A stretch of DNA of 64,000 bases from Candidatus Marinacidobacterales bacterium. Its GTDB lineage: Bacteria > Acidobacteriota > Vicinamibacteria > Marinacidobacterales > SMYC01. The position numbers were made by a program, and so were the translations under genes. The DNA lies in contig CBDCYI010000004.1 in the NCBI GenBank assembly GCA_965224085.1, positions 320,001 through 384,000 of the forward strand, read 5' to 3'. The notes beneath the pieces are model-generated. The model ran no database searches, was not told the DNA's origin, and saw only the letters and a program-made list of their open reading frames with translations. Position 1 is the stretch's first letter. Every line of letters starts with the position of its first letter. Positions 13,968 through 55,464 of this stretch are shown here, piece by piece.

Positions 13968-15644
13968 TCTGTAGGGTTTCGGCATCCATGCCGTCCCCGG
14001 TATCACTCACCGCGATCTCCGCCGAGGTCTGCACACTGGACGGCAACGCGTTCTCCCCGTCGACATCCACGCTGCGTGTCGCGATCTTCAACCGTCCACC
14101 GCGTGGCATGGCATCGCGAGCGTTGACGACTAGGTTCATGATGACCTGTTCGATCTGACCCGGGTCCGCCTTGACGGGCTTCAGGTCCGAGGCGAGATCG
14201 ATGACGAGCGTGACATCTTCCGAGATGAGGCGTTCGAGCAAGCCTCTCATTTCGGCGATGACCGCGTTCAGGTCGATGACCCTTGGTTGCAGCACTTGCT
14301 TGCGGCTGAAAGCGAGGAGCTGGCTCGTGAGCGAGGCGGCGCGCCGACCGGCTTTGGCGATTTGCTCTATCTGGCGTTCGGCCGCCTTTCCTTTCCGTGC
14401 CGATAAGAGCTCGCAATAGCCGAGAATGGTGGTCAGGAGATTGTTGAAGTCATGGGCGATACCGCCCGCGAGCTGCCCTATTCCCTCCATTCGCTGGGAC
14501 TGTCGCATGTGTTCTTCGTTCTCACGAAGCGCGATCTCCGCCTTTTCTCGAGCGATCTGGTGCTCACGGCGGTGGTGCTCGGCCTCACGCAAGTCCGTCG
14601 AAAAGGCGGCCACCTCGACCGCGAGCTCACCGAGCTCGTCCCGACGCTCGAGCGGCAGCGAGGTCGAGAGCTCGCGCGTCTCACGCAGATCAACGACCGC
14701 GTGGCGCAACTGCACGAGTGGCCGAACGAGAGCACGGTCGGTGGCGATGCCGATGAGAACCAGCCCTACCGCCATCGCGAGCAAGAAAAAGACGGAGAGC
14801 GCCAGAAAAGCGCGGTTCTATGTATCGGTGATATCGCTGTCTTGAGTCAGCCGGAAACTTGCGACCTGGTCTCCTTCGAAGTTCGTGAGTCGCGCGATGG
14901 TGGCCGAGCGCGTCTGCAGCTGCGGCTCGGCCGAGCGATCCGCCTCTTCGAAAACGAGCTCGACAGTGCCGCCGGGCGTGGCCGTCGCGTCTTTCAGGAA
15001 AGCATCCGTGATCCGCCATCCCAGGATCAGCGCGCCGTGGCCGGGCGGTACGAAACGTCCCGTACCCGAGCGCTCAATAGTGCCTGCCGTGAGCCAGATG
15101 GCGCCTCCGGCGCTAAGCCAGAGCATGTCGGTGTCGGGCCGCTCGAAACCCAGTCTCACGGGCGGCAAATCGCGAACGTTCTTGCCGCGCTCGAACACGC
15201 CTGTGGGAGCCTCCGAGTAGACGACATTACCGTCCCTGTCGACAACCACGAGGACATCGAACACATTCGTGTTAAGGAGCCAATCGAGGTTGCCCTGCTC
15301 CCAACCGGGTTCCGGGTGCTCGATGTAATCCACGAGCTCGTCCCAGAGGGCAAAGTTGACGAGCCAAACGCTTAGCATCGAGCGCCGCTCGTCGAGACGC
15401 TCCTGCGCACGCTGGACTTGGCTCTTCCAGATCGTGTCCGATTGACGGGAAATGGCCCGACTTGCCAACGCGACGAGCATGACGGCGCATCCTGTGACGA
15501 CCACTAGCCCGGGCATCGCCCACGCAAAGAGTCTGCGACGTATCGAACGCGTTGACATCGGATTTGAGGCGGTCGTGAATGAGCAATTCTAACGCGGCTG
15601 AGCTCCCGATGCGAGCGCCCCCGACTCTGATCGAAGTTTAGCTA

Positions 15645-17328
15645 GTTCCTGTCCAGAAACACCATAACTTGTGGTGTACGAGAGGCCTATCGAAGATGTG
15701 GGTATTATACGTTTTCAGCCGGCACCTCGTAGGCTCGGAAGCGAATGAAAATCTTGGACGAAACGAGAGGCGAATCGTCAGCAATCCATGGCTATAAACG
15801 CAGTAAGAGCAATCATTATTATCGTAATAGGTGCCTTGCCATTACCAACAGGTTGCAGGTGATGATGGAACTCCATACGTAGGATTTGAAAGAAGGCAAT
15901 GAGCGCCATGTGCATCGGTCGAGACCAAAGACTCGTTTCAAGAACGAAATGACGCCTTCGATTCCGCAGCGAAATCGCCGTAGGCGTTGATAGACCCAGG
16001 AACTCTTGACCATATCGGTCACCGCGAAGTGAGCCTTGGTAAAGGCAACATCTTCAACTCCCTTGCCTTTGATGGCTTCCAAGTTTGCCTTTGAAGAAAA
16101 CGCGCCATCGTAGGCAACCTGGCGCGGGGCCCGTTCGTAGAGTTCGACTTGACGGTCGATCATGGTTTCCGCGAGAGTTGAATCGGACGGATTCCCATCC
16201 AAGATCACGCAATCCAAAATCATCGAGGACGAGCCACCAGTCAAACACACCTTGTGACCGTAGAGAGTCTCGCGCCGGTCTTTGCGAATAATGTCGGTGT
16301 GTTCTTCGAAGATCGAAACGACCTTTTCCTCCGCAGGCACACGCTCTTCATCAATCACTCTACGCCGAGTTTGGTTGATGACTTTTTCGGTGAGGACGAG
16401 AAAGTGCTTAAAATCCGCGGCGATCTTCTCCGCACTCGCTCGCTTCACCGGCTCGGTCAAGCCGGACTCGTCCAACTGGTCTGCAACGCGTTGAGCGGAG
16501 CGATAGGTTTCTTCCGACACCTTCAGTAGATCTCGATAGACGCGACGCCTTTGTTCCTTATCCTTCGCGTTTAGAACTCCCAGTCGACGTCTCTCCGCTC
16601 GACGCGTTCGATTGCCGAAGACCACTACTGTACCCAGCAGTTCGCGAGTTCGGCACATGAGGCGAGTGAGAACTCGGACGCAGTCATAAAGAAGCTCGGA
16701 GTCCGTAGGAGAATGAATATTCGACTCCACTACCGTGCAGTCCACTCGTACTTTTCTTCCTTTTTCGATCGCGGTCTTCTCGGCAACACTCACCAACTCT
16801 CGGTTGATTTTCTCCAGCGTTTCGAACTTCACGGCTTTGATGTTTGCTGCTAGGGTCGACTTCGACGGGCTCGGCTCTATGATGCCGAGCTGGCAAAACG
16901 TCCGATAGCTTCGAGAGTCTGCCAAGTGAAACGCCAGCTCCCGATAGGTGAACTGATTCAGCTGCTTGACCAACAACGCCCGGAGAACCTGCTCCGCGCT
17001 CATTCCCCCACGACCAACATCGCTCCCTGCCGATGGGGTGACCGACCTCAGGTCTTGCAGTACCAGCTCATTGAGCTTAGGATGGGCATCGAGCACCGAC
17101 GAGATCGCTTCGAGTTCGCGTGCGTGCTCCAGCTCCAGCCAGGGCTCGCATAGGCTTGGTTGTGGAATGATTGTTTTTCGCATTTAGGGCTGGTCTCCTT
17201 TGGAGTTAAGTCGTTTAGAATCTGCGTTTTTGTCGACTCGATACTAAACGACACTCCCTCAGAAGGCTAGCCCTAAATTTGCGATTACCCCTTTTTTCTC
17301 AACCTCTTACACCTGTCAGGACGGGTAC
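15645..17328 (-). mobile_element. ISNCY-family (ISDol1-like) IS, copy 1, 1684 bp
   Basis: Ends GTTCCTGTCCAGAAA...TGTCAGGACGGGTAC (imperfect IR); TAGCTA at 15639-15644 and 17329-17334. Confidence 0.92.
15819..17183 (-). CDS. ISNCY-family DDE transposase
   Basis: 454 aa; RVDCTVVESNIHSPTDS, KVVSIFEEHTDII, YDGAF, RFRCGIEGVISFLKR. Confidence 0.92.
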   Translation of the reverse strand: MRKTIIPQPSLCEPWLELEHARELEAISSVLDAHPKLNELVLQDLRSVTPSAGSDVGRGGMSAEQVLRALLVKQLNQFTYRELAFHLADSRSYRTFCQLGIIEPSPSKSTLAANIKAVKFETLEKINRELVSVAEKTAIEKGRKVRVDCTVVESNIHSPTDSELLYDCVRVLTRLMCRTRELLGTVVVFGNRTRRAERRRLGVLNAKDKEQRRRVYRDLLKVSEETYRSAQRVADQLDESGLTEPVKRASAEKIAADFKHFLVLTEKVINQTRRRVIDEERVPAEEKVVSIFEEHTDIIRKDRRETLYGHKVCLTGGSSSMILDCVILDGNPSDSTLAETMIDRQVELYERAPRQVAYDGAFSSKANLEAIKGKGVEDVAFTKAHFAVTDMVKSSWVYQRLRRFRCGIEGVISFLKRVFGLDRCTWRSLPSFKSYVWSSIITCNLLVMARHLLR

Positions 17329-17334
17329 TAGCTA

Positions 17335-19018
17335 GTTCCTGTCCAGAAACACCATAACTTGTGGTGTACGAGAGGCCTATCGAAGATGTGGGTATTATAC
17401 GTTTTCAGCCGGCACCTCGTAGGCTCGGAAGCGAATGAAAATCTTGGACGAAACGAGAGGCGAATCGTCAGCAATCCATGGCTATAAACGCAGTAAGAGT
17501 AATCATTATTATCGTAATAGGTGCCTTGCCATTACCAACAGGTTGCAGGTGATGATGGAACTCCATACGTAGGATTTGAAAGAAGGCAATGAGCGCCATG
17601 TGCATCGGTCGAGACCAAAGACTCGTTTCAAGAACGAAATGACGCCTTCGATTCCGCAGCGAAATCGCCGTAGGCGTTGATAGACCCAGGAACTCTTGAC
17701 CATATCGGTCACCGCGAAGTGAGCCTTGGTAAAGGCAACATCTTCAACTCCCTTGCCTTTGATGGCTTCCAAGTTTGCCTTTGAAGAAAACGCGCCATCG
17801 TAGGCAACCTGGCGCGGGGCCCGTTCGTAGAGTTCGACTTGACGGTCGATCATGGTTTCCGCGAGAGTTGAATCGGACGGATTCCCATCCAAGATCACGC
17901 AATCCAAAATCATCGAGGACGAGCCACCAGTCAAACACACCTTGTGACCGTAGAGAGTCTCGCGCCGGTCTTTGCGAATAATGTCGGTGTGTTCTTCGAA
18001 GATCGAAACGACCTTTTCCTCCGCAGGCACACGCTCTTCATCAATCACTCTACGCCGAGTTTGGTTGATGACTTTTTCGGTGAGGACGAGAAAGTGCTTA
18101 AAATCCGCGGCGATCTTCTCCGCACTCGCTCGCTTCACCGGCTCGGTCAAGCCGGACTCGTCCAACTGGTCTGCAACGCGTTGAGCGGAGCGATAGGTTT
18201 CTTCCGACACCTTCAGTAGATCTCGATAGACGCGACGCCTTTGTTCCTTATCCTTCGCGTTTAGAACTCCCAGTCGACGTCTCTTCGCTCGACGCGTTCG
18301 ATTGCCGAAGACCACTACTGTACCCAGCAGTTCGCGAGTTCGGCACATGAGGCGAGTGAGAACTCGGACGCAGTCATAAAGAAGCTCGGAGTCCGTAGGA
18401 GAATGAATATTCGACTCCACTACCGTGCAGTCCACTCGTACTTTTCTTCCTTTTTCGATCGCGGTCTTCTCGGCAACACTCACCAACTCTCGGTTGATTT
18501 TCTCCAGCGTTTCGAACTTCACGGCTTTGATGTTTGCTGCTAGGGTCGACTTCGACGGGCTCGGCTCTATGATGCCGAGCTGGCAAAACGTCCGATAGCT
18601 TCGAGAGTCTGCCAAGTGAAACGCCAGCTCCCGATAGGTGAACTGATTCAGCTGCTTGACCAACAACGCCCGGAGAACCTGCTCCGCGCTCATTCCCCCA
18701 CGACCAACATCGCTCCCTGCCGATGGGGTGACCGACCTCAGGTCTTGCAGTACCAGCTCATTCAGCTTAGGATGGGCATCGAGCAGCGATGATATCGTTT
18801 CGAGCTCGCGTGCGTGCTCCAGCTCCAGCCAGGGCTCGCGAAGGCTTGGTTGTGGGTTGATCGTTTTTCGCATTTAGGGCTGGTCTCCTTTGGAGTTAAG
18901 TCGTTTAGAATCTGCGTTTTTGTCGACTCGATACTAAACGACACTCCCTCAGAAGGCTAGCCCTAAATTTGCGATTACCCCTTTTTTCTCAACCTCTTAC
19001 ACCTGTCAGGACGGGTAC
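17335..19018 (-). mobile_element. ISNCY-family IS, copy 2 (tandem with copy 1)
   Basis: Same ends; TAGCTA at 17329-17334 and 19019-19024. Confidence 0.92.
17509..18873 (-). CDS. ISNCY-family DDE transposase
   Basis: 454 aa, near-identical to copy 1. Confidence 0.92.
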   Translation of the reverse strand: MRKTINPQPSLREPWLELEHARELETISSLLDAHPKLNELVLQDLRSVTPSAGSDVGRGGMSAEQVLRALLVKQLNQFTYRELAFHLADSRSYRTFCQLGIIEPSPSKSTLAANIKAVKFETLEKINRELVSVAEKTAIEKGRKVRVDCTVVESNIHSPTDSELLYDCVRVLTRLMCRTRELLGTVVVFGNRTRRAKRRRLGVLNAKDKEQRRRVYRDLLKVSEETYRSAQRVADQLDESGLTEPVKRASAEKIAADFKHFLVLTEKVINQTRRRVIDEERVPAEEKVVSIFEEHTDIIRKDRRETLYGHKVCLTGGSSSMILDCVILDGNPSDSTLAETMIDRQVELYERAPRQVAYDGAFSSKANLEAIKGKGVEDVAFTKAHFAVTDMVKSSWVYQRLRRFRCGIEGVISFLKRVFGLDRCTWRSLPSFKSYVWSSIITCNLLVMARHLLR

Positions 19019-19021
19019 TAG

Positions 19022-21055
19022 CTAATTCGTGGGCTCTCCCATGAACCGCTTTTTCGGCTCGACCAGCTTGACCACCCATAGGCCGGAGGTAAAGTCAGCG
19101 AGAAAGATGTTGCCCTTGTAAGGCTGCACCCCCCAAACGTTCGGTGCGTTTGGTTTGAAGCTCTTGGGGTCGTAAGGATGCCAGAACGCGATCTCCCGTC
19201 CTTGCCGATAGAGGTCGCCACGGAGCTCGCCGGAAATGTCGACGACACGGAGGCCGCCTCCGTAATAACCGATATAAAGCACGTCGTCCTCGACCCAGAG
19301 ATTATGTGAGCCTGCTTCGGGGACTTGATAACGCGCGACTTCCTTGGGCTCGTTCCATTCGTCCCATTCGAGCACATGAATCCATCCCGCCGCGCGCTGC
19401 GGAGGCGCACCCGGACGCTCGTCACGGGCGTAGGGAAAAGCTTCGTCGCCGGCAAACGCGTAGAACTTGCCTGTCGATTGGCTCTTGTAAGGAAAGGCCG
19501 CATGATTCCAGCCGCTCGGATAGGCGTAGCTCCCGAGCTTCACGGGACTATTGGGCGCGCCTCCCTGGCCGCCGCCGCCGACGTCCACGGCCACTACGCC
19601 GTCGTACCAGTTGGACGAATAGGCAATACCATCGACGACCCAAACGTCGTGGATACCGTGTCCCGGCGTGTCGAGCTCGAAACGTCCCACGCGGTAGGGA
19701 GTCGTGGGGTCCTCGATGCTGATGATGTCGTAGCGACGTCCGTTCGAGAGCGCGTAAACGTGCGCTTCGTGGATGAAGACATTGTGCACGCCGCCGTTCA
19801 ACTGGTCGTCGTATCGCGCGATAACGCGCACGCCGTCCGCCGGGTTCCTGACGTCGAGGATGACGAGACCGTTCTTGCGATTGGACGCGCCCTCGCGGCT
19901 GATGATGGCGGTGGCGCCGTCTTCGGAGATCTTGACGTCGTTGACGGTGCGCGCATCGACGCGTACGGTGTCGACGAGCTGAATAGTGTTGGGCTCGGTG
20001 ACATCCCAGAAATAGGCGTGGCCGTCGGCACTCCAAGTGCCTGTCATGGCGTAGTCGCGCCCGTCCGGTGCCTCCCAGACCCATAAGTCGGAGGTGTGTC
20101 GATCGCGCACCGGCCCCTGGCCCAACACTTCGACCGCCTTGCGCACTTTCCGGGTCCGGGCCTTGATGGTCTTGCGAGCGACGTGGTTGCCCGCGACAGC
20201 GACGATCGTGTGAAGTCCGGAACGCTCGGCGACGAAAGCGCCTTCTTCATCGATCTGCCCCGTGGCGCCAGCCGCGATGATGCCCGCTTCAGGCCGCGCA
20301 TAGGTTGCGAACTGCACCGGATAGTCGAAAACGGCTTTACCGTTTGCATCGAGCGCTCTCGCTTCGAAGAAGACGACGTCACCGGTGCGAACGTCGTCAG
20401 CACTCGCGCTGAGCTCGAACGAGGTGACCGGGTCCGCCGCGACGTCGATGTCGATGTGGCCGCTCACGGATTCCGCGTGCGCTGTGATCCGCACCATGCC
20501 TGCTTTCTTGAAGGAAAGCGAGCCGAGCGCATCGAGGCTCGCGACGCTCTCGTCACTCGTCTCGAGCCTTACTTCCACGTCGGGGCGATTGGCGCCCGCG
20601 CTGTCGGTCACTCGAGTCTCGATAGGTGCTATGGTGCCGGCGTAAAACGCCGATGGAAGGTCGACGAACTCGACAGAGGCTGCGGGCGGATTCGGGATGG
20701 TGACGGGAATCTCTACCGTCAGAAGTGCGTCGGCGCGCCGATCGAGATCCTCGGGATCCTTCGGGAGCATCGCGATGAGCACATGCTCGCCGGGCCGGTA
20801 GGCTTCGACGATCCCCGCGGGATTGATGCCAACGGAACGCCGGCGCCGCGAAAAGAAAACGACGGGGCGCTCGACAATATCGCCGTCCGCTTCGAGCACA
20901 GTGGCCACGAGCGTGGCTTTCTCGCCGACCTTCAGATTGAGCTCGCTCGGCTCGACCTTGAGCGTCAAAGTCAGTGTCGGCTCCGCTGGCTCTTCTTGCG
21001 CCCACACGGCGATGGAGACGAATAGCAGCGTCAGGACGATCGCGGCCTGTTTCAT
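19022..21055 (-). CDS. Secreted LVIVD-repeat beta-propeller protein with Ig-like domains
   Basis: Start MKQAAIVL (ATGA overlap), signal peptide, Ig-like N-terminus, LVILDV / LRVVDIS / VVAVDV repeats, HN/HD motifs. Confidence 0.85.
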   Translation of the reverse strand: MKQAAIVLTLLFVSIAVWAQEEPAEPTLTLTLKVEPSELNLKVGEKATLVATVLEADGDIVERPVVFFSRRRRSVGINPAGIVEAYRPGEHVLIAMLPKDPEDLDRRADALLTVEIPVTIPNPPAASVEFVDLPSAFYAGTIAPIETRVTDSAGANRPDVEVRLETSDESVASLDALGSLSFKKAGMVRITAHAESVSGHIDIDVAADPVTSFELSASADDVRTGDVVFFEARALDANGKAVFDYPVQFATYARPEAGIIAAGATGQIDEEGAFVAERSGLHTIVAVAGNHVARKTIKARTRKVRKAVEVLGQGPVRDRHTSDLWVWEAPDGRDYAMTGTWSADGHAYFWDVTEPNTIQLVDTVRVDARTVNDVKISEDGATAIISREGASNRKNGLVILDVRNPADGVRVIARYDDQLNGGVHNVFIHEAHVYALSNGRRYDIISIEDPTTPYRVGRFELDTPGHGIHDVWVVDGIAYSSNWYDGVVAVDVGGGGQGGAPNSPVKLGSYAYPSGWNHAAFPYKSQSTGKFYAFAGDEAFPYARDERPGAPPQRAAGWIHVLEWDEWNEPKEVARYQVPEAGSHNLWVEDDVLYIGYYGGGLRVVDISGELRGDLYRQGREIAFWHPYDPKSFKPNAPNVWGVQPYKGNIFLADFTSGLWVVKLVEPKKRFMGEPTN

Positions 21056-22143
21056 TGTGCTCCCTTCCAAAAAATAATCCCGCCCGCCTGTTTGCCGACA
21101 TCGGCTACGGCGACGCGTTCCTTCGATGTGAGGTCGTAGACCTCGACGGTACCCGGCTCACCGCCGACCCCTTCGAGCGTCACGAAAGCATATTTGTCGT
21201 CGTCCGAAACGGCGACCCCGTGCGGGATGCGGCGTGTCGTCTTGAGGCGGGCGAGCTCCGCGCCCATCGTGAGATCCCAGATGGCAACATACGCGCCCGA
21301 CTTGTAAGTGGCAATTAATAACTTGCCGTCGGAGGTCACTTCGAGGTTGTACGGGCCCATGCCGTCTCCGGCATCGAGCTTGCGCGAGACTTTCCACGCC
21401 TCGAGATCGATTTCGTGAATCAGGTTGTCGCCGTTGCCCGCGACGTAGATACGGTTTTCGGGCGTCGGAGCGGTCGCCCAGGTCGGCTTCACCTTCATCG
21501 ACATACGCCCGAGCAGGTCTTCGCCTGTCCCTGAATCGGAGAGCGACAACGTCCGCGCCACTTCGAACTTGAACGTGTCGAGCTCGACAAGGCTGTCGCT
21601 CATCATGTTCACCGAGTAGAGAAGGGTGCCTTTCGCGTTCATCCGGGAGCCATGGGGCATGATTCCGACGTCGATGCGATCGACCTCTGTCATCGTGCTC
21701 GTCTCGATTACCGAGATGCTGCTCGGCTTCATATCGCCGTGCAGATCGAAGTTGACCGCGAAGAGAAGGCCCGTCGAGGGCGAGATGGATATCGTTGCTG
21801 GAAACATTCCCACGGTGACGTCGCCGAGCCACTCGTCGTTAGCCGTATCGAACTTGTGGATGGAACCAAACGGCATTCCGTGCGCGATCGACAAGAACCA
21901 GTACCGCCCGTCGGGCGAAACGTTGATGCCGTGGGGCCCCTCGGTCTCGGAAGGAAAGGCCCCAACGGGGATCGATTTGACCTCCGCGAGGCCGCCGGGA
22001 CCGTATCGCAATTTGTGTACGGTGTCGTCCGACTCGGCGCAGACATAGACGAAGTAGTTTCGTTGGGGCGGGTCGGCTGCGGTCGCACTGTTGGCGCCGA
22101 CGAATCCAACAACGATGGCAAGCGTCGAGCTCGAAATCTTCAA
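21052..22143 (-). CDS. YncE/YVTN-family beta-propeller protein
   Basis: GPHGINVSPDG, MPHGSR, IPHGVAVSDD repeats; likely TTG start after GGAGG. Confidence 0.85.
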   Translation of the reverse strand: MKISSSTLAIVVGFVGANSATAADPPQRNYFVYVCAESDDTVHKLRYGPGGLAEVKSIPVGAFPSETEGPHGINVSPDGRYWFLSIAHGMPFGSIHKFDTANDEWLGDVTVGMFPATISISPSTGLLFAVNFDLHGDMKPSSISVIETSTMTEVDRIDVGIMPHGSRMNAKGTLLYSVNMMSDSLVELDTFKFEVARTLSLSDSGTGEDLLGRMSMKVKPTWATAPTPENRIYVAGNGDNLIHEIDLEAWKVSRKLDAGDGMGPYNLEVTSDGKLLIATYKSGAYVAIWDLTMGAELARLKTTRRIPHGVAVSDDDKYAFVTLEGVGGEPGTVEVYDLTSKERVAVADVGKQAGGIIFWKGAQ

Positions 22144-22222
22144 TGCGCTTCCTCCAACGCCTATTAGTGTCACAGGCGAGTCCCCGTCGTAATCGGGCGA
22201 TCAGCTGCGCTATCCTGCGCCC

Positions 22223-33356: not shown

Positions 33357-33445
33357 ATCTGTGAATCCCTTGACTCAAGTTTGTCGAGCGTTTGTTTAGG
33401 CTCGTGTCCGGAACCTATAATCCTCGATTCGAAAGGGTGGGTCGA

Positions 33446-35125
33446 ATGAGCCCTATGGTAGCAGCGATTGGCTGCTTCGTCGTCTATCTTCTTGGCTATC
33501 ACTTCTACGCGAAGCGGATCGCGCGCCATCTCTTCGAGCTTACCGGCAAGAACGAGACACCCGCGCACACGCTTAACGACGGGCAAGACTACGTTCCTTC
33601 CAAGCGCTACGTTCTTTTCGGGCATCATTATGCGTCCATCGCCGGGCTCGCGCCGATGCTCGGCCCCGCGATCGCGGTGATGTGGGGCTGGGTTCCCGCG
33701 ATGATTTGGGTCGTGCTGGGAACGATCTTCATCGGTGCCGTGCACGATTTTAGCGCCTTGGCGGTGAGCTTGCGCGCCAAGGGCAAATCGATTGGAAAGG
33801 TGGCCGAGAGCATCATCGGGCACCGGGCGAAGAGTCTCTTTCACGTCATCATTATCTTTCTCGTAGCCCTTGCGATGGGTGTCTTCGTCCAAGTCGTCTC
33901 TCAACTGTTTTCCTCGAATTTCTATCCCGAGGCTGTGTTCCCGAGCTTCTCTTTGATGGTACTGGCAGTAGCGATGGGGGTGCTTTTCTACAAGAAGGGC
34001 ATGCCGCTCGGACGCTTGACTTTCGTCGGCTTCGTGCTCACGCTCGTCGCCATCTACATGGGCCGTGTTCTCCCCACGCCGGATTTGAGCGTGTCCTCGT
34101 GGAGCTACGTGCTGCTCGCTTACGCCTTTGCCGCGTCCGTTCTGCCCGTGTGGCTCTTGCTCCAGCCGCGAGACTTCCTGAACTCGCTGCTTCTTTATCT
34201 GGGGTTGGTCGCGATCTTTCTCGGGTTTATCCTTCTGAGGCCGAGCTTTGTGGCTCCCGCCTTCGACCCGACGCCGCCGGGTGCTCCGCCCCTCTATCCT
34301 TTCGTGTTCATCGTAGTCGCTTGTGGCGCCGTTTCCGGCTTCCATGCGCTCGTCTCTTCGGGAACGACCGCCAAGCAGCTCAACAAGGAGCAGGACGCCG
34401 TCTTCATCGGCTATGGAGGCATGGTCTGCGAAAGTGTTCTGGGTCTCGCGGCCGTTCTTGCTTGCACCGCGGGTTTCGCGAGCACAACGGCGTGGCGCGA
34501 CCACTACTCGAATTGGGAATCGGCGGACGGTCTCGCTTCGAACTTGGACGCGTTCGTCTCGGGCTCCGCAACGTTCCTCGCGAGCCTCGGGATCGAGCCC
34601 GCTCTCGGGAAGGCGTTCGTGGCACTCGTGGCGGTATCCTTCGCGCTCACGACGCTCGATTCGGCCACGCGGCTTCTGCGCTACAACATCGAAGAGGTTG
34701 CTGAGACGGTGAAGATGCCCGTGCTCGCGAACCGCTATATCGCGACGGCGTTGTCGGTCGCGGCCATTGGTTTCTTCGCGCTGCTACAGGTTGATGGCCG
34801 GCCGGCCGGCGTCGTGCTCTGGGCGGTCTTCGGTACAACGAACCAAGTCATGGCCGGGCTGACGCTTTTGACCGTGACGCTCTACCTTTACTTCCGGAAG
34901 AAGAACTATCTCTATACCGCCATCCCGATGGTCTTCATGCTCGTGACGACCCTCGCCGCGATGGTCATCAACGTCCGGAACTTCTTCAACCAAGGCAGCT
35001 ACTTGCTCCTGGCTGTGGGCGGTGTCGTGCTGTTGCTCGCGCTCTGGCTCATCGTCGAAGGTGTTCTCCGCTTCACCCGCGGCCGCGAAGAGGCGGCTGC
35101 GACTTTGCAAGAGGCGCTTAATTAG
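33446..35125 (+). CDS. cstA: Carbon starvation protein A family transporter
   Basis: TPAH..NDG.DYVP, FGHHYASIAG, GAVHDF, LPVWLLLQPRD, ACGAVSGFH, TTLDSATR, FGTTNQ. Confidence 0.94.
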   Translation: MSPMVAAIGCFVVYLLGYHFYAKRIARHLFELTGKNETPAHTLNDGQDYVPSKRYVLFGHHYASIAGLAPMLGPAIAVMWGWVPAMIWVVLGTIFIGAVHDFSALAVSLRAKGKSIGKVAESIIGHRAKSLFHVIIIFLVALAMGVFVQVVSQLFSSNFYPEAVFPSFSLMVLAVAMGVLFYKKGMPLGRLTFVGFVLTLVAIYMGRVLPTPDLSVSSWSYVLLAYAFAASVLPVWLLLQPRDFLNSLLLYLGLVAIFLGFILLRPSFVAPAFDPTPPGAPPLYPFVFIVVACGAVSGFHALVSSGTTAKQLNKEQDAVFIGYGGMVCESVLGLAAVLACTAGFASTTAWRDHYSNWESADGLASNLDAFVSGSATFLASLGIEPALGKAFVALVAVSFALTTLDSATRLLRYNIEEVAETVKMPVLANRYIATALSVAAIGFFALLQVDGRPAGVVLWAVFGTTNQVMAGLTLLTVTLYLYFRKKNYLYTAIPMVFMLVTTLAAMVINVRNFFNQGSYLLLAVGGVVLLLALWLIVEGVLRFTRGREEAAATLQEALN

Positions 35126-36808
35126 TTCCTGTCCAGAAACACCATAACTTGTTGTGTACGAGAGGCCTATCGAAGATGTGGGTATTATACGTTTTCAGTC
35201 GGCACCTCGTAGGCTCGGAAGCGAATGAAAATCTTGGACGAAACGAGAGGCGAATCGTCAGCAATCCATGGCTATAAACGCAGTAAGAGCAATCATTATT
35301 ATCGTAATAGGTGCCTTGCCATTACCAACAGGTTGCAGGTGATGATGGAACTCCATACGTAGGATTTGAAAGAAGGCAATGAGCGCCATGTGCATCGGTC
35401 GAGACCAAAGACTCGTTTCAAGAACGAAATGACGCCTTCGATTCCGCAGCGAAATCGCCGTAGGCGTTGATAGACCCAGGAACTCTTGACCATATCGGTC
35501 ACCGCGAAGTGAGCCTTGGTAAAGGCAACATCTTCAACTCCCTTGCCTTTGATGGCTTCCAAGTTTGCCTTTGAAGAAAACGCGCCATCGTAGGCAACCT
35601 GGCGCGGGGCCCGTTCGTAGAGTTCGACTTGACGGTCGATCATGGTTTCCGCGAGAGTTGAATCGGACGGATTCCCATCCAAGATCACGCAATCCAAAAT
35701 CATCGAGGACGAGCCACCAGTCAAACACACCTTGTGACCGTAGAGAGTCTCGCGCCGGTCTTTGCGAATAATGTCGGTGTGTTCTTCGAAGATCGAAACG
35801 ACCTTTTCCTCCGCAGGCACACGCTCTTCATCAATCACTCTACGCCGAGTTTGGTTGATGACTTTTTCGGTGAGGACGAGAAAGTGCTTAAAATCCGCGG
35901 CGATCTTCTCCGCACTCGCTCGCTTCACCGGCTCGGTCAAGCCGGACTCGTCCAACTGGTCTGCAACGCGTTGAGCGGAGCGATAGGTTTCTTCCGACAC
36001 CTTCAGTAGATCTCGATAGACGCGACGCCTTTGTTCCTTATCCTTCGCGTTTAGAACTCCCAGTCGACGTCTCTTCGCTCGACGCGTTCGATTGCCGAAG
36101 ACCACTACTGTACCCAGCAGTTCGCGAGTTCGGCACATGAGGCGAGTGAGAACTCGGACGCAGTCATAAAGAAGCTCGGAGTCCGTAGGAGAATGAATAT
36201 TCGACTCCACTACCGTTCAGTCCACTCGTACTTTTCTTCCTTTTTCGATCGCGGTCTTCTCGGCAACACTCACCAACTCTCGGTTGATTTTCTCCAGCGT
36301 TTCGAACTTCACGGCTTTGATGTTTGCTGCTAGGGTCGACTTCGACGGGCTCGGCTCTATGATGCCGAGCTGGCAAAACGTCCGATAGCTTCGAGAGTCT
36401 GCCAAGTGAAACGCCAACTCCCGATAGGTGAACTGATTCAGCTGCTTGACCAACAACGCACGGAGAACCTGCTCCGCGCTCATTCCCCCACGACCAACAT
36501 CGCTCCCTGCCGATGGGGTGACCGACCTCAGGTCTTGCAGTACCAGCTCATTGAGCTTAGGATGGGCATCGAGCAGCGATGATATCGTTTCGAGTTCGCG
36601 TGCGTGCTCCAGCTCCAGCCAGGGCTCGCGAAGGCTTGGTTGTGGGTTGATCGTTTTTCGCATTTAGGGCTGGTCTCCTTTGGAGTTAAGTCGTTTAGAA
36701 TCTGCGTTTTTGTCGACTCGATACTAAACGACACTCCCTCAGAAGGCTAGCCCTAAATTTGCGATTACCCCTTTTTTCTCAACCTCTTACACCTGTCAGG
36801 ACGGGTAC
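35125..36808 (-). mobile_element. ISNCY-family IS, copy 3
   Basis: Same ends; TAATTA at 35119-35124 and 36809-36814. Confidence 0.92.
35299..36663 (-). pseudogene. ISNCY transposase with nonsense mutation
   Basis: TGC to TGA at 36217, immediately after the Asp of RVD*TVV. Confidence 0.9.
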
Positions 36809-36811
36809 TAA

Positions 36812-37588
36812 TTAGCGCGCGCACGTAAGGTGGCGCCCGCCGTCGATGTTGACGGTGTCGCCAGTGATCCATCCGGCCTCGTCCGAAGCTAGAAACGTGA
36901 TCAGCGCAGCGAGGTCTTCGACTTTCCCGACGCGCCCGATCGGATGGGTCGTCTTGCTTCTTTCCAGAAACGCCGCGTACTTCGTCTCATCGAGGCCTGC
37001 CTGACGGTGGAGCTCGGTGACGACGACGCCAGGATTGACGTTGTTCACGCGGACCCCCGCAGGCGCCAGCTCCAGCGCCGAGCAGCGCGTGAGCTGATCG
37101 AGCGCTGACTTGCTCGAGTTATAAGCGAGCACACCCGGGAACGACCGCATGCCATTCACACTCGACACGTTCACGATGTTGCCTTTCCGCCGGATGATGT
37201 GCGGGAGAGAGAGCTGCATGAGATGGAAGACGGAGACGACGTTGATGTCGAACATCTTCTGCCAGTCTTCGAGGGAGGTGTCCTCGATCGTTCCAAAGGC
37301 GATGATCCCGGCCGCATTGACAAGAATATCTAGGCCTTCATATTGAGCCACGGTCTCGTCGACGAGGCGCTTACGGTCTGACACGCTCGTGAGGTCGCCG
37401 GGGATGGCATAGGCCGAGCCGCCCGCGCCCTCAATCTCGAGAACGAGCTCTTTGAGTTTCTCTTCGCGTCGCGCGGTCAACGCTACTTTGGCGCCTTCGC
37501 TTGCGAGGCGCGCCGCCGTGGCTTTTCCGATGCCGCTCGTCGTCCCCGTCACGAGCGCGACCTTGCCTTCGAACCGAATATCCGCCAT
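36812..37588 (-). CDS. Short-chain dehydrogenase/reductase
   Basis: TGTTSGIG, NAAG, NVSS, YNSSK, VNPG, DGG. Confidence 0.95.
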   Translation of the reverse strand: MADIRFEGKVALVTGTTSGIGKATAARLASEGAKVALTARREEKLKELVLEIEGAGGSAYAIPGDLTSVSDRKRLVDETVAQYEGLDILVNAAGIIAFGTIEDTSLEDWQKMFDINVVSVFHLMQLSLPHIIRRKGNIVNVSSVNGMRSFPGVLAYNSSKSALDQLTRCSALELAPAGVRVNNVNPGVVVTELHRQAGLDETKYAAFLERSKTTHPIGRVGKVEDLAALITFLASDEAGWITGDTVNIDGGRHLTCAR

Positions 37589-49884: not shown

Positions 49885-50184
49885 CTAGTCGTAGTCGAAA
49901 GGATGTGGCGGCGGGGAGTCGTCCTTGTCCGCTTTTTCGAAGGCCTCTCGGAACTTCTTTTCGAGAAGCTCTTCTTTGTGCTCCTCCTCACGGACCGCTT
50001 GCGCGAAAGTGTCCTCCGCGTCGGTCTTGCGTTTCTTGTTACGCTCCACCGCTTGCTCGAACGTGACTTTGCCACCGCGCGGCGGCTCGTCGTGCGACAC
50101 AACAGCGCCGGTCTTGTGGTCGATGAGGAGCTTGGACTCGCAGCATGGGCAAACAACTTTGAAATCTTCATCGAGCATCGCCAA
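49885..50184 (-). CDS. Small CPCC-motif hypothetical protein
   Basis: VCPCCES.L.ID..TG, charged helix, C-terminal PPHPFDYD; RBS AGGAG. Confidence 0.75.
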   Translation of the reverse strand: MAMLDEDFKVVCPCCESKLLIDHKTGAVVSHDEPPRGGKVTFEQAVERNKKRKTDAEDTFAQAVREEEHKEELLEKKFREAFEKADKDDSPPPHPFDYD

Positions 50185-50248
50185 CTCCTATGGATGCATG
50201 ATAGGGTAGCCGCCCATCGGATTTCAAAGCCATCGACGGGGAGGAGCC

Positions 50249-50674
50249 ATGAGCGATTACGAGGACGCGCAACTGATTCTCCAGTTCTACGGCCTGCGGC
50301 GGGAGTCCCGCCTTCGGGAGGCCCGCTCGTTCGTGCTCGGCCGATTGAAAGCGAAGAACGTCGAAGAGCTCAATGACCTCTGTCCTCCGGGCTCAGAGGA
50401 GAATGCCTCGTTTCGGCAAGTGGTGAGTTACTGGGATATGGTCGCCGCGATCGTGAAACGAGACACCGTCGAGAAAGAGCTCTTCTTCGAGACCAACAGT
50501 GAGATCACCGTGGTGTGGGAGAAGGTGAAGCACCTCGTCCCCGAGCTGCGGGTGCAGTTCGGAAACCCCGCTTTTCTCGAGAGTCTCGAGCAGATCGCTA
50601 AAGAGCGCGAGGCTTACCTGAACGCCAAAGTCCCGGACTATCTCGAGTCTTTGCGTGAGCGCCTAAGCGTCTGA
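50249..50674 (+). CDS. Hypothetical protein (DUF4760-like)
   Basis: DAQLILQFY.LRRE..LREAR, RQVVSYWDM; RBS GGAGGAG. Confidence 0.8.
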   Translation: MSDYEDAQLILQFYGLRRESRLREARSFVLGRLKAKNVEELNDLCPPGSEENASFRQVVSYWDMVAAIVKRDTVEKELFFETNSEITVVWEKVKHLVPELRVQFGNPAFLESLEQIAKEREAYLNAKVPDYLESLRERLSV

Positions 50675-51172
50675 GCCCCCGGACGCTTCCGCGACCTGTT
50701 CCGACGTCATCCCGTAGATCGGGGGCGTCTCGATCCCGAGAAAGCCAGCATACGTATAGATTTGGCCGCGATGATGGATCTCGTGCTCGGGTAGGAGTCG
50801 AAGCCACTTCCATGTCGTAATAGGCGTGCCCGCGGGAGTGACACACTTGCCGCTCAAGTTCTCCGGCGTTAGCGTCGCGAAGATGGCCATCGACTCCTCG
50901 TGGCATTGATCGAAGAAGCGAAGAACGGCCTCTCGTCCGTCCGCGAGCTCCGTGCCGCACCCGCGATAGAGGCTCGGTTTCCCTTGAACGTTCTCGGCAT
51001 ACATGAAGCGCTCGATCGCTGCGAGATGGCGGATGAGATCGGCGAACGTAAACTTGCCTTCGATGGGCGTCCACTCCATCTTGTCGTCCGGGATGACGTC
51101 GATGAGTCGCTTCGTGCGCTGGCGCACCTTGCCGTAATACTCGAGAAACACGTTGATATGAGTGAACTCCAA
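50663..51172 (-). CDS. DinB family protein
   Basis: DLIRHLAAIE, EHEIHHRGQIY; TTG start inferred. Confidence 0.88.
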   Translation of the reverse strand: MEFTHINVFLEYYGKVRQRTKRLIDVIPDDKMEWTPIEGKFTFADLIRHLAAIERFMYAENVQGKPSLYRGCGTELADGREAVLRFFDQCHEESMAIFATLTPENLSGKCVTPAGTPITTWKWLRLLPEHEIHHRGQIYTYAGFLGIETPPIYGMTSEQVAEASGGSDA

Positions 51173-51174
51173 AG

Positions 51175-52113
51175 TCAGCGCTCCAAGATCTTCGACAGAA
51201 CTTCCGTATCGATGTTGCCCCCCGAAACGATGCAGACGATCTTCTCGGCTTCGACTTTGTCGCTGAGCGCCACAGCTACGGGCACAGCGCCCGCGCCTTC
51301 GGACACGACGCGATTGCGCTCGACTAGGAGCCGAAGTGCTCTTTCCACTTCGGCGACACTCGCCGTGAAGGCTCCTTTCAAGAGCTCCTGCGCGAGTGGC
51401 CACATCTTCGGGAGCAGGCCTCCGCTTCCAATCCCATCCACGAAGGAAGGTTTCCGGTCGACCCCCGTCATCTCCCCGGCAGAGAAAGAAGCGCTCAAAG
51501 GCGCAGCGGTCTCGACCTCGACCCCGTAGACGCGCGTTTCAGGCCGCAACTCGGCGAGCCCGCTCGCGATGCCGCTCGAGAGGCCGCCGCCGCCCCAGGG
51601 GACCAACACGACGTCAGGGTCCGGCAAGTCCTCGAAAAGCTCGAGTGCGATCGTTCCATTCCCCGCCATGACGGGCTCGTCTTCGACCGGATGCAAGAAA
51701 AAGCCCTCGACTCTATCGAAGCGCCGCTCCGTCATGCACTGCCACCAAGCATCGTACGGCACGTCGATGTGACGCGCTCCGAGCCGATCGATCGCCGTGA
51801 GCTTTGTTTTGGGCGCGTGGTCGGGAACGATGATGGTGCACGGGATGTTCTTCTCGCGCGCCACCCATGCGACGCCTTGCGCCCAATTGCCGGCGCTCGC
51901 AGTGACGACGCCTTTTGCGATTTATTCGGGAGGCGCGAGCCGGAACGCGTTGATCGCGCCCCGCAGCTTGAACGAAGCGATGGGTTGGAGGTTCTCGAGC
52001 TTGAGATAAATCTCTCGTGGGCTCTCGGGGTAGTTCAAGCGCACGAGCGGCGTTCGCAATACCCGATCTTCGATAGCTTTTCTTGCGGCTCGGATCTCCG
52101 TGATGGGTATCAC
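51175..52113 (-). pseudogene. Serine/threonine dehydratase with nonsense codon
   Basis: RTPL, KLENLQ..SFKLRGA, in-frame TAA at 51922-51924, then ASAGN, PWGGGGL, EGAGA, SGGN. Confidence 0.88.
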
Positions 52114-52163
52114 GGGCGAGTTGTACCACGTTCGGACTGGAGGCGTGGTGCTACACTGCCGTC

Positions 52164-52937
52164 GTGCTTCTCGTGCTCGATATCGGCAATGCGAAAACCG
52201 CCATCGGTGTGTATCACGACGGTGGCTGGAAGACCGATTGGCGCGTCACGACGCATCTCGACCATCTTGCCGACGAATACTACGTTCTTTTGAAATCACT
52301 TCTCGAGGACAAGGGGCTTTCCTGGAACGACATTTCCGGCGCCGTGATCGCGAGCGTGGTGCCGCCCTTGACCGCGACGTTTCAGGAGCTCACCGAGCGC
52401 TTGCTGGGACACCCTCCGCTCATCGTGGCGCTCGGCGTCGAGACCGGGATCGGCATCAAGATCGACAACCCGGAGGAGGTCGGCGCCGATCGCGTCGCCA
52501 ATACGGCGGCGGTGCATAAGCTCTATGGCGGACCGGCCATCGTGGCCGATCTAGGAACGGCGACGACCTTCGATGTGGTCTCGAAAGAGGGCGACTATCT
52601 CGGCGGCGCGATCGCTCCCGGGCTCGGGATCACAGCGGACGCGCTCGTGCGGCGCACCTCGAAGCTCCCAAGAGTCGAGCTCACCCTTCCGGAGAAGGCC
52701 ATCGGCACCAACACCGTGAGTGCGATGCGGTCCGGGCTCGTTCTCGGTTATCTAGGGCTCGTGAAGGAGCTCGTGGCGCGTCTCAAGACGGAAGTGCCCG
52801 GCGAGCCGAAAGTAATCGCGACCGGCGGCATGGCTGAGATCGTCGCCGAATGGACCCAAGTGATCGACATCGTAAACCCTCGGCTGACGCTCGAGGGCCT
52901 GAGGATCATCTACGAGCTGAATGAGTCGTTGGTATAG
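52164..52937 (+). CDS. coaX: Type III pantothenate kinase
   Basis: LDIGN, ASVVP, EVGADR, DLGTATT, GGAIAPG, ATGG. Confidence 0.96.
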   Translation: MLLVLDIGNAKTAIGVYHDGGWKTDWRVTTHLDHLADEYYVLLKSLLEDKGLSWNDISGAVIASVVPPLTATFQELTERLLGHPPLIVALGVETGIGIKIDNPEEVGADRVANTAAVHKLYGGPAIVADLGTATTFDVVSKEGDYLGGAIAPGLGITADALVRRTSKLPRVELTLPEKAIGTNTVSAMRSGLVLGYLGLVKELVARLKTEVPGEPKVIATGGMAEIVAEWTQVIDIVNPRLTLEGLRIIYELNESLV

Positions 52938-52940
52938 TTA

Positions 52941-54627
52941 GTTCCTGTCCAGAAACACCATAACTTGTGGTGTACGAGAGGCCTATCGAAGATGTGGGTA
53001 TTATACGTTTTCAGTCGGCACCTCGTAGGCTCGGAAGCGAATGAAAATCTTGGACGAAACGAGAGGCGAATCGTCAGCAATCCATGGCTATAAACGCAGT
53101 AAGAGTAATCATTATTATCGTAATAGGTTCCTTGCCATTACCAACAGGTTGCAGGTGATGATGGAACTCCATACGTAGGATTTGAAAGAAGGCAATGAGC
53201 GCCATGTGCATCGGTCGAGACCAAAGACTCGTTTCAAGAACGAAATGACGCCTTCGATTCCGCAGCGAAATCGCCGTAGGCGTTGATAGACCCAGGAACT
53301 CTTGACCATATCGGTCACCGCGAAGTGAGCCTTGGTAAAGGCAACATCTTCAACTCCCTTGCCTTTGATGGCTTCCAAGTTTGCCTTTGAAGAAAACGCG
53401 CCATCGTAGGCAACCTGGCGCGGGGCCCGTTCGTAGAGTTCGACTTGACGGTCGATCATGGTTTCCGCGAGAGTTGAATCGGACGAATTCCCATCCAAGA
53501 TCACGCAATCCAAAATCATCGAGGACGAGCCACCAGTCAAACACACCTTGTGACCGTAGAGAGTCTCGCGCCGGTCTTTGCGAATAATGTCGGTGTGTTC
53601 TTCGAAGATCGAAACGACCTTTTCCTCCGCAGGCACACGCTCTTCATCAATCACTCTACGCCGAGTTTGGTTGATGACTTTTTCGGTGAGGACGAGAAAG
53701 TGCTTAAAATCCGCGGCGATCTTCTCCGCACTCGCTCGCTTCACCGGCTCGGTCAAGCCGGACTCGTCCAACTGGTCTGCAACGCGTTGAGCGGAGCGAT
53801 AGGTTTCTTCCGACACCTTCAGTAGATCTCGATAGACGCGACGCCTTTGTTCCTTATCCTTCGCGTTTAGAACTCCCAGTCGACGTCTCTTCGCTCGACG
53901 CGTTCGATTGCCGAAGACCACTACTGTACCCAGCAGTTCGCGAGTTCGGCACATGAGGCGAGTGAGAACTCGGACGCAGTCATAAAGAAGCTCGGAGTCC
54001 GTAGGAGAATGAATATTCGACTCCACTACCGTGCAGTCCACTCGTACTTTTCTTCCTTTTTCGATCGCGGTCTTCTCGGCAACACTCACCAACTCTCGGT
54101 TGATTTTCTCCAGCGTTTCGAACTTCACGGCTTTGATGTTTGCTGCTAGGGTCGACTTCGACGGGCTCGGCTCTATGATGCCGAGCTGGCAAAACGTCCG
54201 ATAGCTTCGAGAGTCTGCCAAGTGAAACGCCAACTCCCGATAGGTGAACTGATTCAGCTGCTTGACCAACAACGCCCGGAGAACCTGCTCCGCGCTCATT
54301 CCCCCACGACCAACATCGCTCCCTGCCGATGGGCGAGTGACCGACCTCAGGTCTTGCAGTACCAGCTCATTCAGCTTAGGATGGGCATCGAGCAGCGATG
54401 ATATCGTTTCGAGTTCGCGTGCGTGCTCCAGCTCCAGCCAGGGCTCGCGAAGGCTTGGTTGTGGGTTGATCGTTTTTCGCATTTAGGGCTGGTCTCCTTT
54501 GGAGTTAAGTCGTTTAGAATCTGCGTTTTTGTCGACTCGATACTAAACGACACTCCCTCAGAAGGCTAGCCCTAAATTTGCGATTAACCCTTTTTTCTCA
54601 ACCTCTTACACCTGTCAGGACGGGTAC
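52941..54627 (-). mobile_element. ISNCY-family IS, copy 4 (1687 bp)
   Basis: Same ends; TAGTTA at 52935-52940 and 54628-54633; 3-bp insertion (SVTRPS). Confidence 0.92.
53115..54482 (-). CDS. ISNCY-family DDE transposase
   Basis: 455 aa, near-identical to the other copies. Confidence 0.92.
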   Translation of the reverse strand: MRKTINPQPSLREPWLELEHARELETISSLLDAHPKLNELVLQDLRSVTRPSAGSDVGRGGMSAEQVLRALLVKQLNQFTYRELAFHLADSRSYRTFCQLGIIEPSPSKSTLAANIKAVKFETLEKINRELVSVAEKTAIEKGRKVRVDCTVVESNIHSPTDSELLYDCVRVLTRLMCRTRELLGTVVVFGNRTRRAKRRRLGVLNAKDKEQRRRVYRDLLKVSEETYRSAQRVADQLDESGLTEPVKRASAEKIAADFKHFLVLTEKVINQTRRRVIDEERVPAEEKVVSIFEEHTDIIRKDRRETLYGHKVCLTGGSSSMILDCVILDGNSSDSTLAETMIDRQVELYERAPRQVAYDGAFSSKANLEAIKGKGVEDVAFTKAHFAVTDMVKSSWVYQRLRRFRCGIEGVISFLKRVFGLDRCTWRSLPSFKSYVWSSIITCNLLVMARNLLR

Positions 54628-54630
54628 TAG

Positions 54631-55464
54631 TTAGCGAATCAGCTCGAACTCGGGGGCTTTGTCCACGACCCCCACCGCCTCCGCCCGCGCGAAGAGTTCG
54701 CGCAGCGCTTTCTCGCCGGCGTCGCCCATGTCCTTCGTGATGTCCGACACGTACATCTTCACGAAGCGGCGGCCGAGCTCGCGCTCGAGGCCGCGGCCGA
54801 ACTTGAGCGAATAGGTGAGCGCCTCATCTTCGTTCTCATAGGCCCAGTCGATGCTCGCGCGCATCGCACGGTTGATCTCCTCCGCGAGCTCGTGCCCGAG
54901 ATCGCGCCGTACGACGTCGAGGCCGAGCGGCAGAGGAAGCCCCGTTTCTTTTTCCCACCGCTCTCCAAAGTCCAGTATTTTGTGATAGCCCTTGTCGGCA
55001 TAGGTCAGCTGGCCTTCGTGGATGATAACGCCAGCATCCGCGTCGCCTTTGTCGACGGCGTCAAAGATCGCGTCGAATGGCCGAACGACCGCGTCGAACT
55101 TTGGAAGGAAGATGCGCGAGAGAAGCGCCGCTGTCGTGATCTCACCGGGAATGGCGACGCGCTTGCCTTCGAGCTCGTCGATCGTAAGCGCTTCTTTCGA
55201 GACGACGACCGGGCCGTAGCCCTCGCCCATGCTCGCGCCCGTCGCCATGATCCAATATTTGTCGGCGACGGAGAGAAAGGCATGCGCCGAAATGGCCGTG
55301 ACCTCGAGATCGCCGTTCATCGCTCGCTCGTTGAGCGTCTGGATGTCCTGGAGCACATGGTCAATTTCGAAATCGAGAATTTTGACGGCGCCGTGCGAGA
55401 GCGCGCAAAACATGAACGCGTCATCGGGGTCCGGGCTATGCCCGATTTGCAAAACGTTTGACAT
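54631..55464 (-). CDS. mqnD: 1,4-dihydroxy-6-naphthoate synthase (futalosine pathway)
   Basis: GHSPDPDDAFMF, DIQTLN, G.GYGP, IHEG, LPLPLG, MYV. Confidence 0.92.
   Translation of the reverse strand: MSNVLQIGHSPDPDDAFMFCALSHGAVKILDFEIDHVLQDIQTLNERAMNGDLEVTAISAHAFLSVADKYWIMATGASMGEGYGPVVVSKEALTIDELEGKRVAIPGEITTAALLSRIFLPKFDAVVRPFDAIFDAVDKGDADAGVIIHEGQLTYADKGYHKILDFGERWEKETGLPLPLGLDVVRRDLGHELAEEINRAMRASIDWAYENEDEALTYSLKFGRGLERELGRRFVKMYVSDITKDMGDAGEKALRELFARAEAVGVVDKAPEFELIR

Follow-up and report, generated by a model that had tools for sequence, protein, structure and literature searches.

The 64,000-nucleotide stretch of Candidatus Marinacidobacterales DNA analysed here (the window, G000:C4:320001-384000 of the source assembly G000, which holds 6.87 Mb at 60% GC in 12 contigs) carries four copies of one 1684-bp insertion sequence (IS) of the ISNCY type, placed at three sites by a repeat search. 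We refer to this element as IS-1. Each site is bordered by a repeated hexamer, TAGCTA, TAATTA or TAGTTA, and the stop codons of neighbouring host genes lie within these hexamers (Table 1). Copies A and B are arranged head to tail, and TAGCTA precedes, separates and follows them. As set out below, the target of IS-1 is a doubled short motif that is found mainly outside genes.

The initial annotation had read the three hexamers as target duplications that hold the stops of five intact genes, and both statements are borne out, by the matching hexamers at both sides of the copies and by the ends of the open reading frames (ORFs), respectively. The same ORF geometry confirms that the coaX and mqnD stops form the two halves of TAGTTA, that the SDR stop lies in TAATTA and that the cstA stop is completed by the first base of the IS, a G. 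Three was also the correct number of sites in the window, with the amendment that copies A and B share one of them. Four of the five flanking genes are named by Pfam (Pan_kinase, VitK2_biosynth, CstA and adh_short). The fifth, of 682 codons, does end in TAGCTA as described, but its earlier name, LVIVD, is unconfirmed: the LVIVD model gives 15 bits (E 0.016), below its cut-off of 20.2. The transposase frame of copy C is interrupted by an in-frame stop within a conserved VDCTVVES stretch, so that this copy cannot encode a full-length transposase.

Table 1. Copies of IS-1, target duplications and flanking genes in the window (positions of the window; aa, amino acids).
Feature	Position	Strand	Remarks
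TAGCTA, left duplication of the A-B array	15639-15644		recurs at 17329-17334 and 19019-19024
IS copy A, 1684 bp	15645-17328	+	99.2% identical to copy B
Copy A transposase ORF, 454 aa	15819-17183	-	
TAGCTA, spacer between A and B	17329-17334		with last C of A and first G of B gives CTAGCTAG
IS copy B (reference copy)	17335-19018	+	starts GTTCCTGTCC, ends GGACGGGTAC
Copy B transposase, 454 aa	17509-18873	-	NF033593; Pfam DUF772 and DDE_Tnp_1
TAGCTA, right duplication	19019-19024		positions 4-6 are the stop of the 682-aa gene
682-aa gene	19022-21070	-	stop inside right TAGCTA
cstA	33392-35125	+	TAG stop combines hexamer positions 5-6 with the first G of the IS; Pfam CstA
TAATTA, left duplication of copy C	35119-35124		
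IS copy C, 1684-bp type	35125-36808	+	
Copy C transposase frame	35299-36663	-	in-frame stop at codon 149
TAATTA, right duplication of copy C	36809-36814		positions 4-6 are the SDR stop
SDR gene	36812-37588	-	stop within right TAATTA; Pfam adh_short
coaX (type III pantothenate kinase)	52164-52937	+	TAG stop is hexamer positions 1-3; Pfam Pan_kinase
TAGTTA, left duplication of copy D	52935-52940		
IS copy D, 1687 bp (3 extra bases)	52941-54627	+	
Copy D transposase, 455 aa	53115-54482	-	
TAGTTA, right duplication of copy D	54628-54633		positions 4-6 are the mqnD stop
mqnD	54631-55464	-	stop is the complement of TTA; Pfam VitK2_biosynth

IS-1 consists of 1684 bp with a single 454-aa ORF on the opposite strand, and neither an extra domain nor a partner gene is present in the element. 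Its terminal inverted repeats agree at 11 of the first 15 terminal bases. The transposase matches the NCBIfam model NF033593 (transpos_ISNCY_1) with 438.1 bits (cut-off 325) over profile positions 11-444 of 444, and Pfam recognises in it PF01609 DDE_Tnp_1 (39.5 bits, cut-off 23) and PF05598 DUF772 (39.9 bits, cut-off 23.1). Inverted repeats, one transposase gene, direct duplications, near-identical copies and empty sites, all of them features of an insertion sequence, are present. The best model of the IS5 family, NF033578, reaches 111.4 bits against a cut-off of 275, and the duplications of IS-1 are 6 or 7 bp long instead of the 4-bp YTAR of the IS5 group. Judged by its sequence, IS-1 belongs to the DDE insertion sequences of ISNCY_1 type and is related to IS5.

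Throughout the genome, 87 pieces of IS-1 are found by BLAST, among them 55 full-length copies at 97.9-100% identity. Two sequence classes can be told apart by their identity to copy B, which is 99.2-100% for the majority and 97.9-98.3% for about nine copies. Five islands lie within 117 kb on the contig of the window (283-400 kb of C4), which may reflect local hopping. When abutting pieces are chained, 67 islands result. We treated 34 islands, those with both outer ends and a matching duplication, as resolved and removed them in order to rebuild an IS-less genome; the other 33 (fragments, islands with a missing end or with duplications that differ at two or more positions) were masked and stand outside the site counts. 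The 34 resolved duplications comprise 26 exact ones of 6 bp, four exact ones of 7 bp and four with one mismatch.

These duplications reveal a target that extends beyond the duplicated bases. TARYTA is fitted by 25 of 30 six-base duplications, the exceptions being TAGTTG, TAGTTC, TAGATA, TACCTA and TAGCGA, and all four 7-bp duplications read TAG-N-CTA. Y precedes the duplication (position -1) in 28 of 30 sites and R follows it (+1) in 29 of 30, which makes the target two tandem YTAR half-sites with a spacing of 0 or 1. The target of IS-1 is thus the octamer YTARYTAR, with CTAGCTAG or CTAG-N-CTAG as its best form, and the duplication covers its inner 6-7 bp. Positions beyond -1 and +1 show no clear bias in the 30 sites, and the loose palindromy that had been noted around the empty sites of the window does not extend to the sites at large.

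The IS-less genome contains 599 TARYTA hexamers, 79 of which are part of a YTARYTAR octamer. Occupied are 22 of these 79 octamers against three of the 520 other hexamers (p = 4e-18); the TARYTA motif proposed from the window is therefore real and strong, but the address proper is the octamer. Occupancy declines with distance from CTAGCTAG, from 4/6 through 7/16, 5/19 and 6/26 to 0/12.

Two further observations concern individual octamers. The run CTAGTTAGTTAGCTAG at G000:C9:165300-165320 (edited coordinates 161926-161934) holds three overlapping octamers, and the last of them, TTAGCTAG, is the only one occupied; a similar run adjoins an IS copy in another genome, G010 (locus L052). Besides, a repeat of about 193 bp that resembles a miniature inverted-repeat transposable element (MITE) is found at G000:C4:908056-908248 and in at least 24 other places, with 25 cases located by an exact 22-base probe. 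TTAA, TTAG or CTAA follows the end of the repeat in 23 of these 25 cases, which points to a third mobile element in this genome with a YTAR-type site. Next to this MITE-like repeat an octamer is formed that holds the IS-1 copy at C4:908256.

On each strand, two of the three frames meet a stop in the octamer, which hence closes four of the six reading frames. The frame that stays open requires CTA or TTA, which together account for 5.7% of leucine codons. Genes were called on the IS-less genome with a home-made caller based on codon usage, which is conservative and misses genes; it yields 4997 genes and a coding share of 77%. According to these calls, 11 of the 79 octamers lie inside coding sequences (CDS), 13 (16%) touch a stop and 55 are intergenic. 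Per Mb, non-coding DNA has 46.6 octamers and coding DNA 2.1, a difference of about 22-fold, with 68 of the 79 outside called CDS. Of the shorter TARYTA hexamers, 255 of 599 fall inside CDS and 49 touch a stop. The initial annotation had suggested that all genomic copies be collected and their share at stop codons compared with that of all TARYTA hexamers; the stop-borne octamers do prove over-occupied, but the great part of the hexamers lies off stops. As an address, the octamer chiefly says "not in genes", and not "stop codon". As to stop usage itself, the called genes end in TGA 2511 times, in TAG 1615 times and in TAA 871 times, and the TAG share of 32% strikes us as high for a genome of 60% GC.

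The insertions follow this distribution. Among the 34 resolved sites, 14 lie on the stop of a gene, 17 are intergenic and three are inside called genes, which they interrupt at codon 443 of 571, 272 of 522 and 173 of 180. In 11 of the 14 stop sites the stop is in register with the duplication, and in three it is offset and completed by the terminal G or C of the element; 12 stop sites remain if genes of at least 100 aa with a score of at least 20 are demanded. In four of 20 half-sites of the masked islands, a frame that resembles a gene reads inward and finishes within the octamer. Landing on stops is a tendency, not a rule, and the three of three in the window stand at the upper end of what the genome-wide rate yields. 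The picture of a safe harbour at gene 3' ends, which had been drawn from the window, holds insofar as the target is mostly non-coding and the genes there are intact, but half of the resolved sites are intergenic. Likewise, stops are restored wherever a stop is hit, but the statement that genes are left unbroken fails at the three interrupted ones.

IS-1 begins with G and ends with C, so that the left junction reads Y-TARYTA-G and the right junction C-TARYTA-R. Each insertion thereby swaps one octamer for two. The consequences are visible in the arrangement of the copies, as 34 of the 55 full copies lie in islands of several pieces. All 19 junctions between IS-1 pieces are co-oriented (15 true junctions and four pieces with internal deletions), as are 18 of 18 in relatives, where arrays of up to five copies occur, also in complete genomes. 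Long palindromes tend to be lost in bacteria. A head-to-head pair of identical copies would form a 1.7-kb palindrome, and we infer that such pairs have been lost.

A sibling element, IS-2, shares the target. It measures 2023 bp (G000:C4:394559-396581; locus L059, 7-2029), is present in 25 pieces genome-wide, is always flanked by TAGCTA and nearly always adjoins IS-1. Its transposase scores 404.7 bits with NF033593 and is 30% identical to that of IS-1. The long transposase frame of IS-2 has no internal stop and ends on the TA of the duplication together with the next purine. A second ORF of 171 aa with a Cys-rich stretch overlaps the 3' part of this frame. Junctions between IS-1 and IS-2 run the same way in 11 cases and in opposite ways in 11. 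Both the head-to-tail arrays of IS-1 and its nesting with IS-2 follow from the octamer being rebuilt at the two junctions of each insertion.

Related genomes show several of these sites without the element. At the coaX/mqnD junction the hexamer is present once in three of four congeners (cTAGTTAg in G004), and G001 has 10 bases there. The cstA/SDR junction reads CAATTA in G003 and CAGTTA in G004, and the junction of the 682-aa gene reads CAGCTA in G003 and has five bases (GGCTA) in G004 and G001; the hexamer thus stands once in two congeners at the former and in one at the latter. Junctions with a single hexamer indicate that the insertions and duplications in G000 are real. They also refute the notion that the hexamers are conserved outer bases of the element, such as TA-bearing ends: TA does stand at both ends of most hexamers, but they vary by site even at their first and last positions (CAACTA, TAGTTC, TCGCTA) and yet match across each copy, and that notion has next to no chance of being right.

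Some of these junctions have a history of their own. The spot of copy C between cstA and SDR carries unrelated inserts of 114 and 345 bp in the congeners G002 (L066) and G001 (L067), and has therefore been hit repeatedly. In the congeners (L060-L063), the coaX frame meets a TAG nine bases before the hexamer, provided that the frame is the same (window 52920-52937). The coaX of G000 would then be four codons longer and reach the TAG of the hexamer, a state that is not conserved; the mqnD stop is inside the hexamer in all four congeners. For the site of copy D, Logan contigs from four runs of two studies include none that spans the IS, and no empty form of the site is seen; the flank contigs stop about 22 bases inside the IS ends, where bridging needs 31. 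One X19 contig holds a junction of IS end to IS start with a 6-base spacer; these runs may be the source of the assembly itself.

More distant copies use the same kind of target. In G002, G003, G010 and G033, copies of 90-94% identity have a matching target-type duplication in 20 of 21 two-ended islands. Members with 60-63% protein identity in other Acidobacteriota have the ends GTTCCTGTCC...GGACAGGAAC and the duplications TAGCTA (three), TAGGTA (two, one of them mismatched), TAGATA (with one mismatch) and CAGTTA. Among relatives, 20 sites with 2.5-kb flanks comprise seven on stops, 11 intergenic and two in CDS, and 14 further single copies from a 9.2-Mb record with flanks of about 1.3 kb comprise two, 11 and one, respectively. 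The latter calls are noisy, as illustrated by one site that is called "stop" with longer flanks and "inside CDS" with short ones. The unpublished genome G027 contributes to none of the statements made here.

In order to account for the insertions at gene ends, we propose that targeting of two half-sites, the distribution of the motif and selection act together, an explanation that we regard as the best as a whole and to which we assign a probability of about 0.65. The transposase would recognise two head-to-tail YTAR half-sites, ideally as CTAGCTAG, and would tolerate one additional base between them. It would cut between Y and T on each strand, at positions deduced from the duplications, which would double the inner 6 or 7 bp. 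With TAR on both strands of every half-site, the octamer leaves open only frames with the rare CTA or TTA, and at 60% GC it is nearly confined to non-coding DNA and to gene ends with TAG or TAA; this confinement would be the reason why many insertions fall on stops. The duplication provides each flanking gene with a full stop, the terminal G and C of the element replacing the outer R and Y, and this replacement accounts for both the offset stops and the rebuilding of complete targets. What excess remains at stops may result from the loss of promoter-proximal and intragenic insertions, as well as from good CTAG halves in GC-rich surroundings, with no sensing of gene ends behind it.

The size of that excess can be read from the octamers of G000, where the insertions counted are those that survived in a single genome and the cells are small. 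Occupancy amounts to 10/13 for stop-borne, 10/55 for intergenic and 2/11 for CDS octamers (stops versus intergenic, p = 1e-4). Set against all others (12/66), the stop-borne class differs with p between 1e-4 and 0.02, depending on gene calling. None of the 10 occupied intergenic octamers is closer than 96 bp to the start of a gene that faces it, and 19 of the 45 free ones are within 98 bp of such a start; we take these distances as signs of selection. The extra occupancy of stop-borne octamers is probably due mainly to the loss of harmful insertions and to a preference for good CTAG halves.

A number of results weigh against this explanation. In a logistic model the stop term remains significant after motif quality and flank GC (likelihood-ratio p = 0.003); flank GC, considered as a cause of the excess, was discarded at p = 0.12 once the stop term was included. 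Between convergent genes, stop octamers are occupied in six of eight cases and spacer octamers in none of six (p = 0.01). Selection alone does not readily fit the divergent, promoter-bearing spacers, with 5/19 octamers occupied, or the CDS, where octamers are occupied as often as intergenic ones. Stop-borne octamers also exceed those intergenic octamers that are at least 96 bp from a facing start (10/36, p = 0.003). The enrichment itself shrinks under other definitions of a gene end: open frames of at least 150 codons end in 13 of 22 occupied and 14 of 57 free octamers (p = 0.007), and with a positive coding score in addition these numbers become 8/22 and 7/57 (p = 0.02). The gene calls behind the excess depend on the home-made caller and its 77% coding share. 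Relatives have 9 of 34 sites on stops (26%), a figure that stands without a count of background octamers in those genomes. Finally, the spacers within an array sometimes differ, where serial insertion into rebuilt targets predicts identical ones. Such arrays are seen in G000 (C4:283832, C9:37146 and C11:181083-186013) and at the loci L032, L034, L037 and L038; one array has the spacers TAGTTA, TAGCTA, TAGTTA and TAGTCTA, and one junction of L038 has only TA. We suspect recombination between copies at different loci, which would also fit single copies with disagreeing flanks.

Several of these results could be taken to mean that recognition of the octamer is joined by a preference, on the part of the transposase or of some host partner, for 3' ends of expressed genes, perhaps by way of a DNA state tied to the end of translation or transcription. 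Such active targeting, in our view unlikely, would account for the contrast in occupancy between stops and the other classes (odds ratio 4.4 to 15), for the persistence of the stop term, for the convergent pairs and for the comparison with start-distant spacers. It sits poorly with the 17 intergenic and three intragenic sites among the 34, with an element whose one ORF comes with no extra domain or partner, and with the fact that three of the 10 occupied stop-borne octamers end ORFs that have no Pfam match. The 9/34 stop sites in relatives, a share without a background value, also speak against it, and the underlying counts concern survivors in small cells, with an annotation-free test that turns out weaker. 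Slightly more doubtful still is the wider idea of a transposase family steered to the ends of expressed genes through a link to the state of the DNA where translation or transcription ends. If steering of this kind were true, it would give a one-gene IS a built-in route to harmless sites, and the occupancy of stop octamers would be about 4 to 15 times that of equal spacer octamers, even between convergent genes.

At the other extreme, any good octamer might be taken, the excess at stops being an artefact of small samples or annotation and the three out of three in the window a matter of luck. Drawn at the genome-wide rate of 14/34, such a run of three comes up with a probability of about 0.07, a more generous count of open frames as gene ends lowers the odds ratio from 15 to about 4, the caller misses genes, and the 26% in relatives is little above the 16% of octamers on stops in G000. 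Up to six more free octamer sites could be gene ends. The worst-case tables nevertheless leave an odds ratio of 4.4-6.2 (p about 0.009), the three ways of calling gene ends give 4.4 to 15 (p 8e-5 to 0.009), and every definition tried stays at p of 0.02 or less. Pfam backs only one of the 10 doubtful free frames as a gene end (an IS200-like transposase), keeping in mind that no match does not mean no gene; among the gene ends tested, it backs four of seven at occupied octamers and three of three at free ones, and seven of the 10 occupied stop-borne octamers are strongly supported by Pfam or coding score. We consider chance on top of the motif an improbable account, more so than either form of gene-end steering, and retain two-half-site targeting with selection.

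Other mobile elements offer instructive parallels. Tn7 inserts at attTn7 downstream of glmS, a single site in each genome, by means of a target-selector protein that serves this purpose. IS-1 resembles it in that it inserts at gene 3' ends without harm, a "safe haven" outcome; it differs in having a single transposase and a short degenerate motif that is present 79 times, and no target selector or single site of the Tn7 kind was found among its one ORF and at least 34 different sites. IS30 and IS21 form tandem dimers and target their own inverted repeats. The head-to-tail IS pairs a few bases apart recall these dimers, but the spacer in IS-1 is the target duplication and the arrays, of up to five copies, come from the rebuilt octamer; in the junctions between IS-1 copies we found no evidence of a reactive intermediate. 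Within its own group, IS-1 is typical in scoring above the curated cut-off of NF033593, in its 1684 bp and in its 6-7 bp duplication. Elements of this model presumably correspond to the ISDol1 group of ISfinder, with 1.6-1.9 kb and 6-7 bp repeats.

A literature search, with ISfinder and TnPedia outside it, returned no description of CTAGCTAG or YTARYTAR as an IS target, of stop codons as targets of ISNCY elements, of a doubled YTAR site with a 6-7 bp inner duplication or of a sequence-specific target for the NF033593 group. The CTAGCTAGCTAG repeats of Frankia (PMC6735867) and a Haloquadratum paper (PMC3119063) were set aside, as the available text of either has no bearing on the octamer target. 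With regard to convergent genes, IS elements are described as enriched between them, which the author credits to selection (PMC2942039, in its available part). For IS870 and ISMt1, the accessible text of PMC13630536 describes a CTAG target that supplies the stop codon of the element itself. IS-2 resembles these elements, as far as that text describes them, in its CTAG target and in a transposase frame whose stop is taken from the target. IS-1 differs in having its own stop, 174 bp inside its end; the target stop serves the gene of the element in IS870 and ISMt1, and host genes in the case of IS-1.

The closest parallel is IS5. In mutation-accumulation lines of E. coli, a two-fold enrichment of YTAR in non-coding DNA partly explains the non-coding bias of its insertions, according to the available part of PMC5009759. 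Within the limits of that text, IS-1 shares with IS5 the DDE_Tnp_1 domain with an N-terminal DUF772, the YTAR half-site and a non-coding bias driven partly by the motif. It differs in requiring two half-sites with a spacing of 0 or 1, where IS5 uses one YTAR with a 4-bp duplication, in a duplication of 6-7 bp that lies inside the recognised octamer, and in a non-coding enrichment of the motif of about 22-fold against the two-fold given in the same portion of PMC5009759.

Altogether, doubled-CTAG targeting is a variant of the YTAR targeting known from IS5-like elements. The step from one YTAR to two abutting ones turns a mild non-coding bias into near-exclusion from genes, and its outcome is dozens of copies that often lie exactly on gene ends, together with arrays that extend themselves, since each insertion turns one target into two. 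For this ISNCY clade an annotation rule results, which consists of the octamer, the 6-7 bp duplication and the G...C ends. With 22 of 79 octamers filled, IS-1 also provides a target-limited system in which targeting and selection could be weighed against each other, given an unselected assay.

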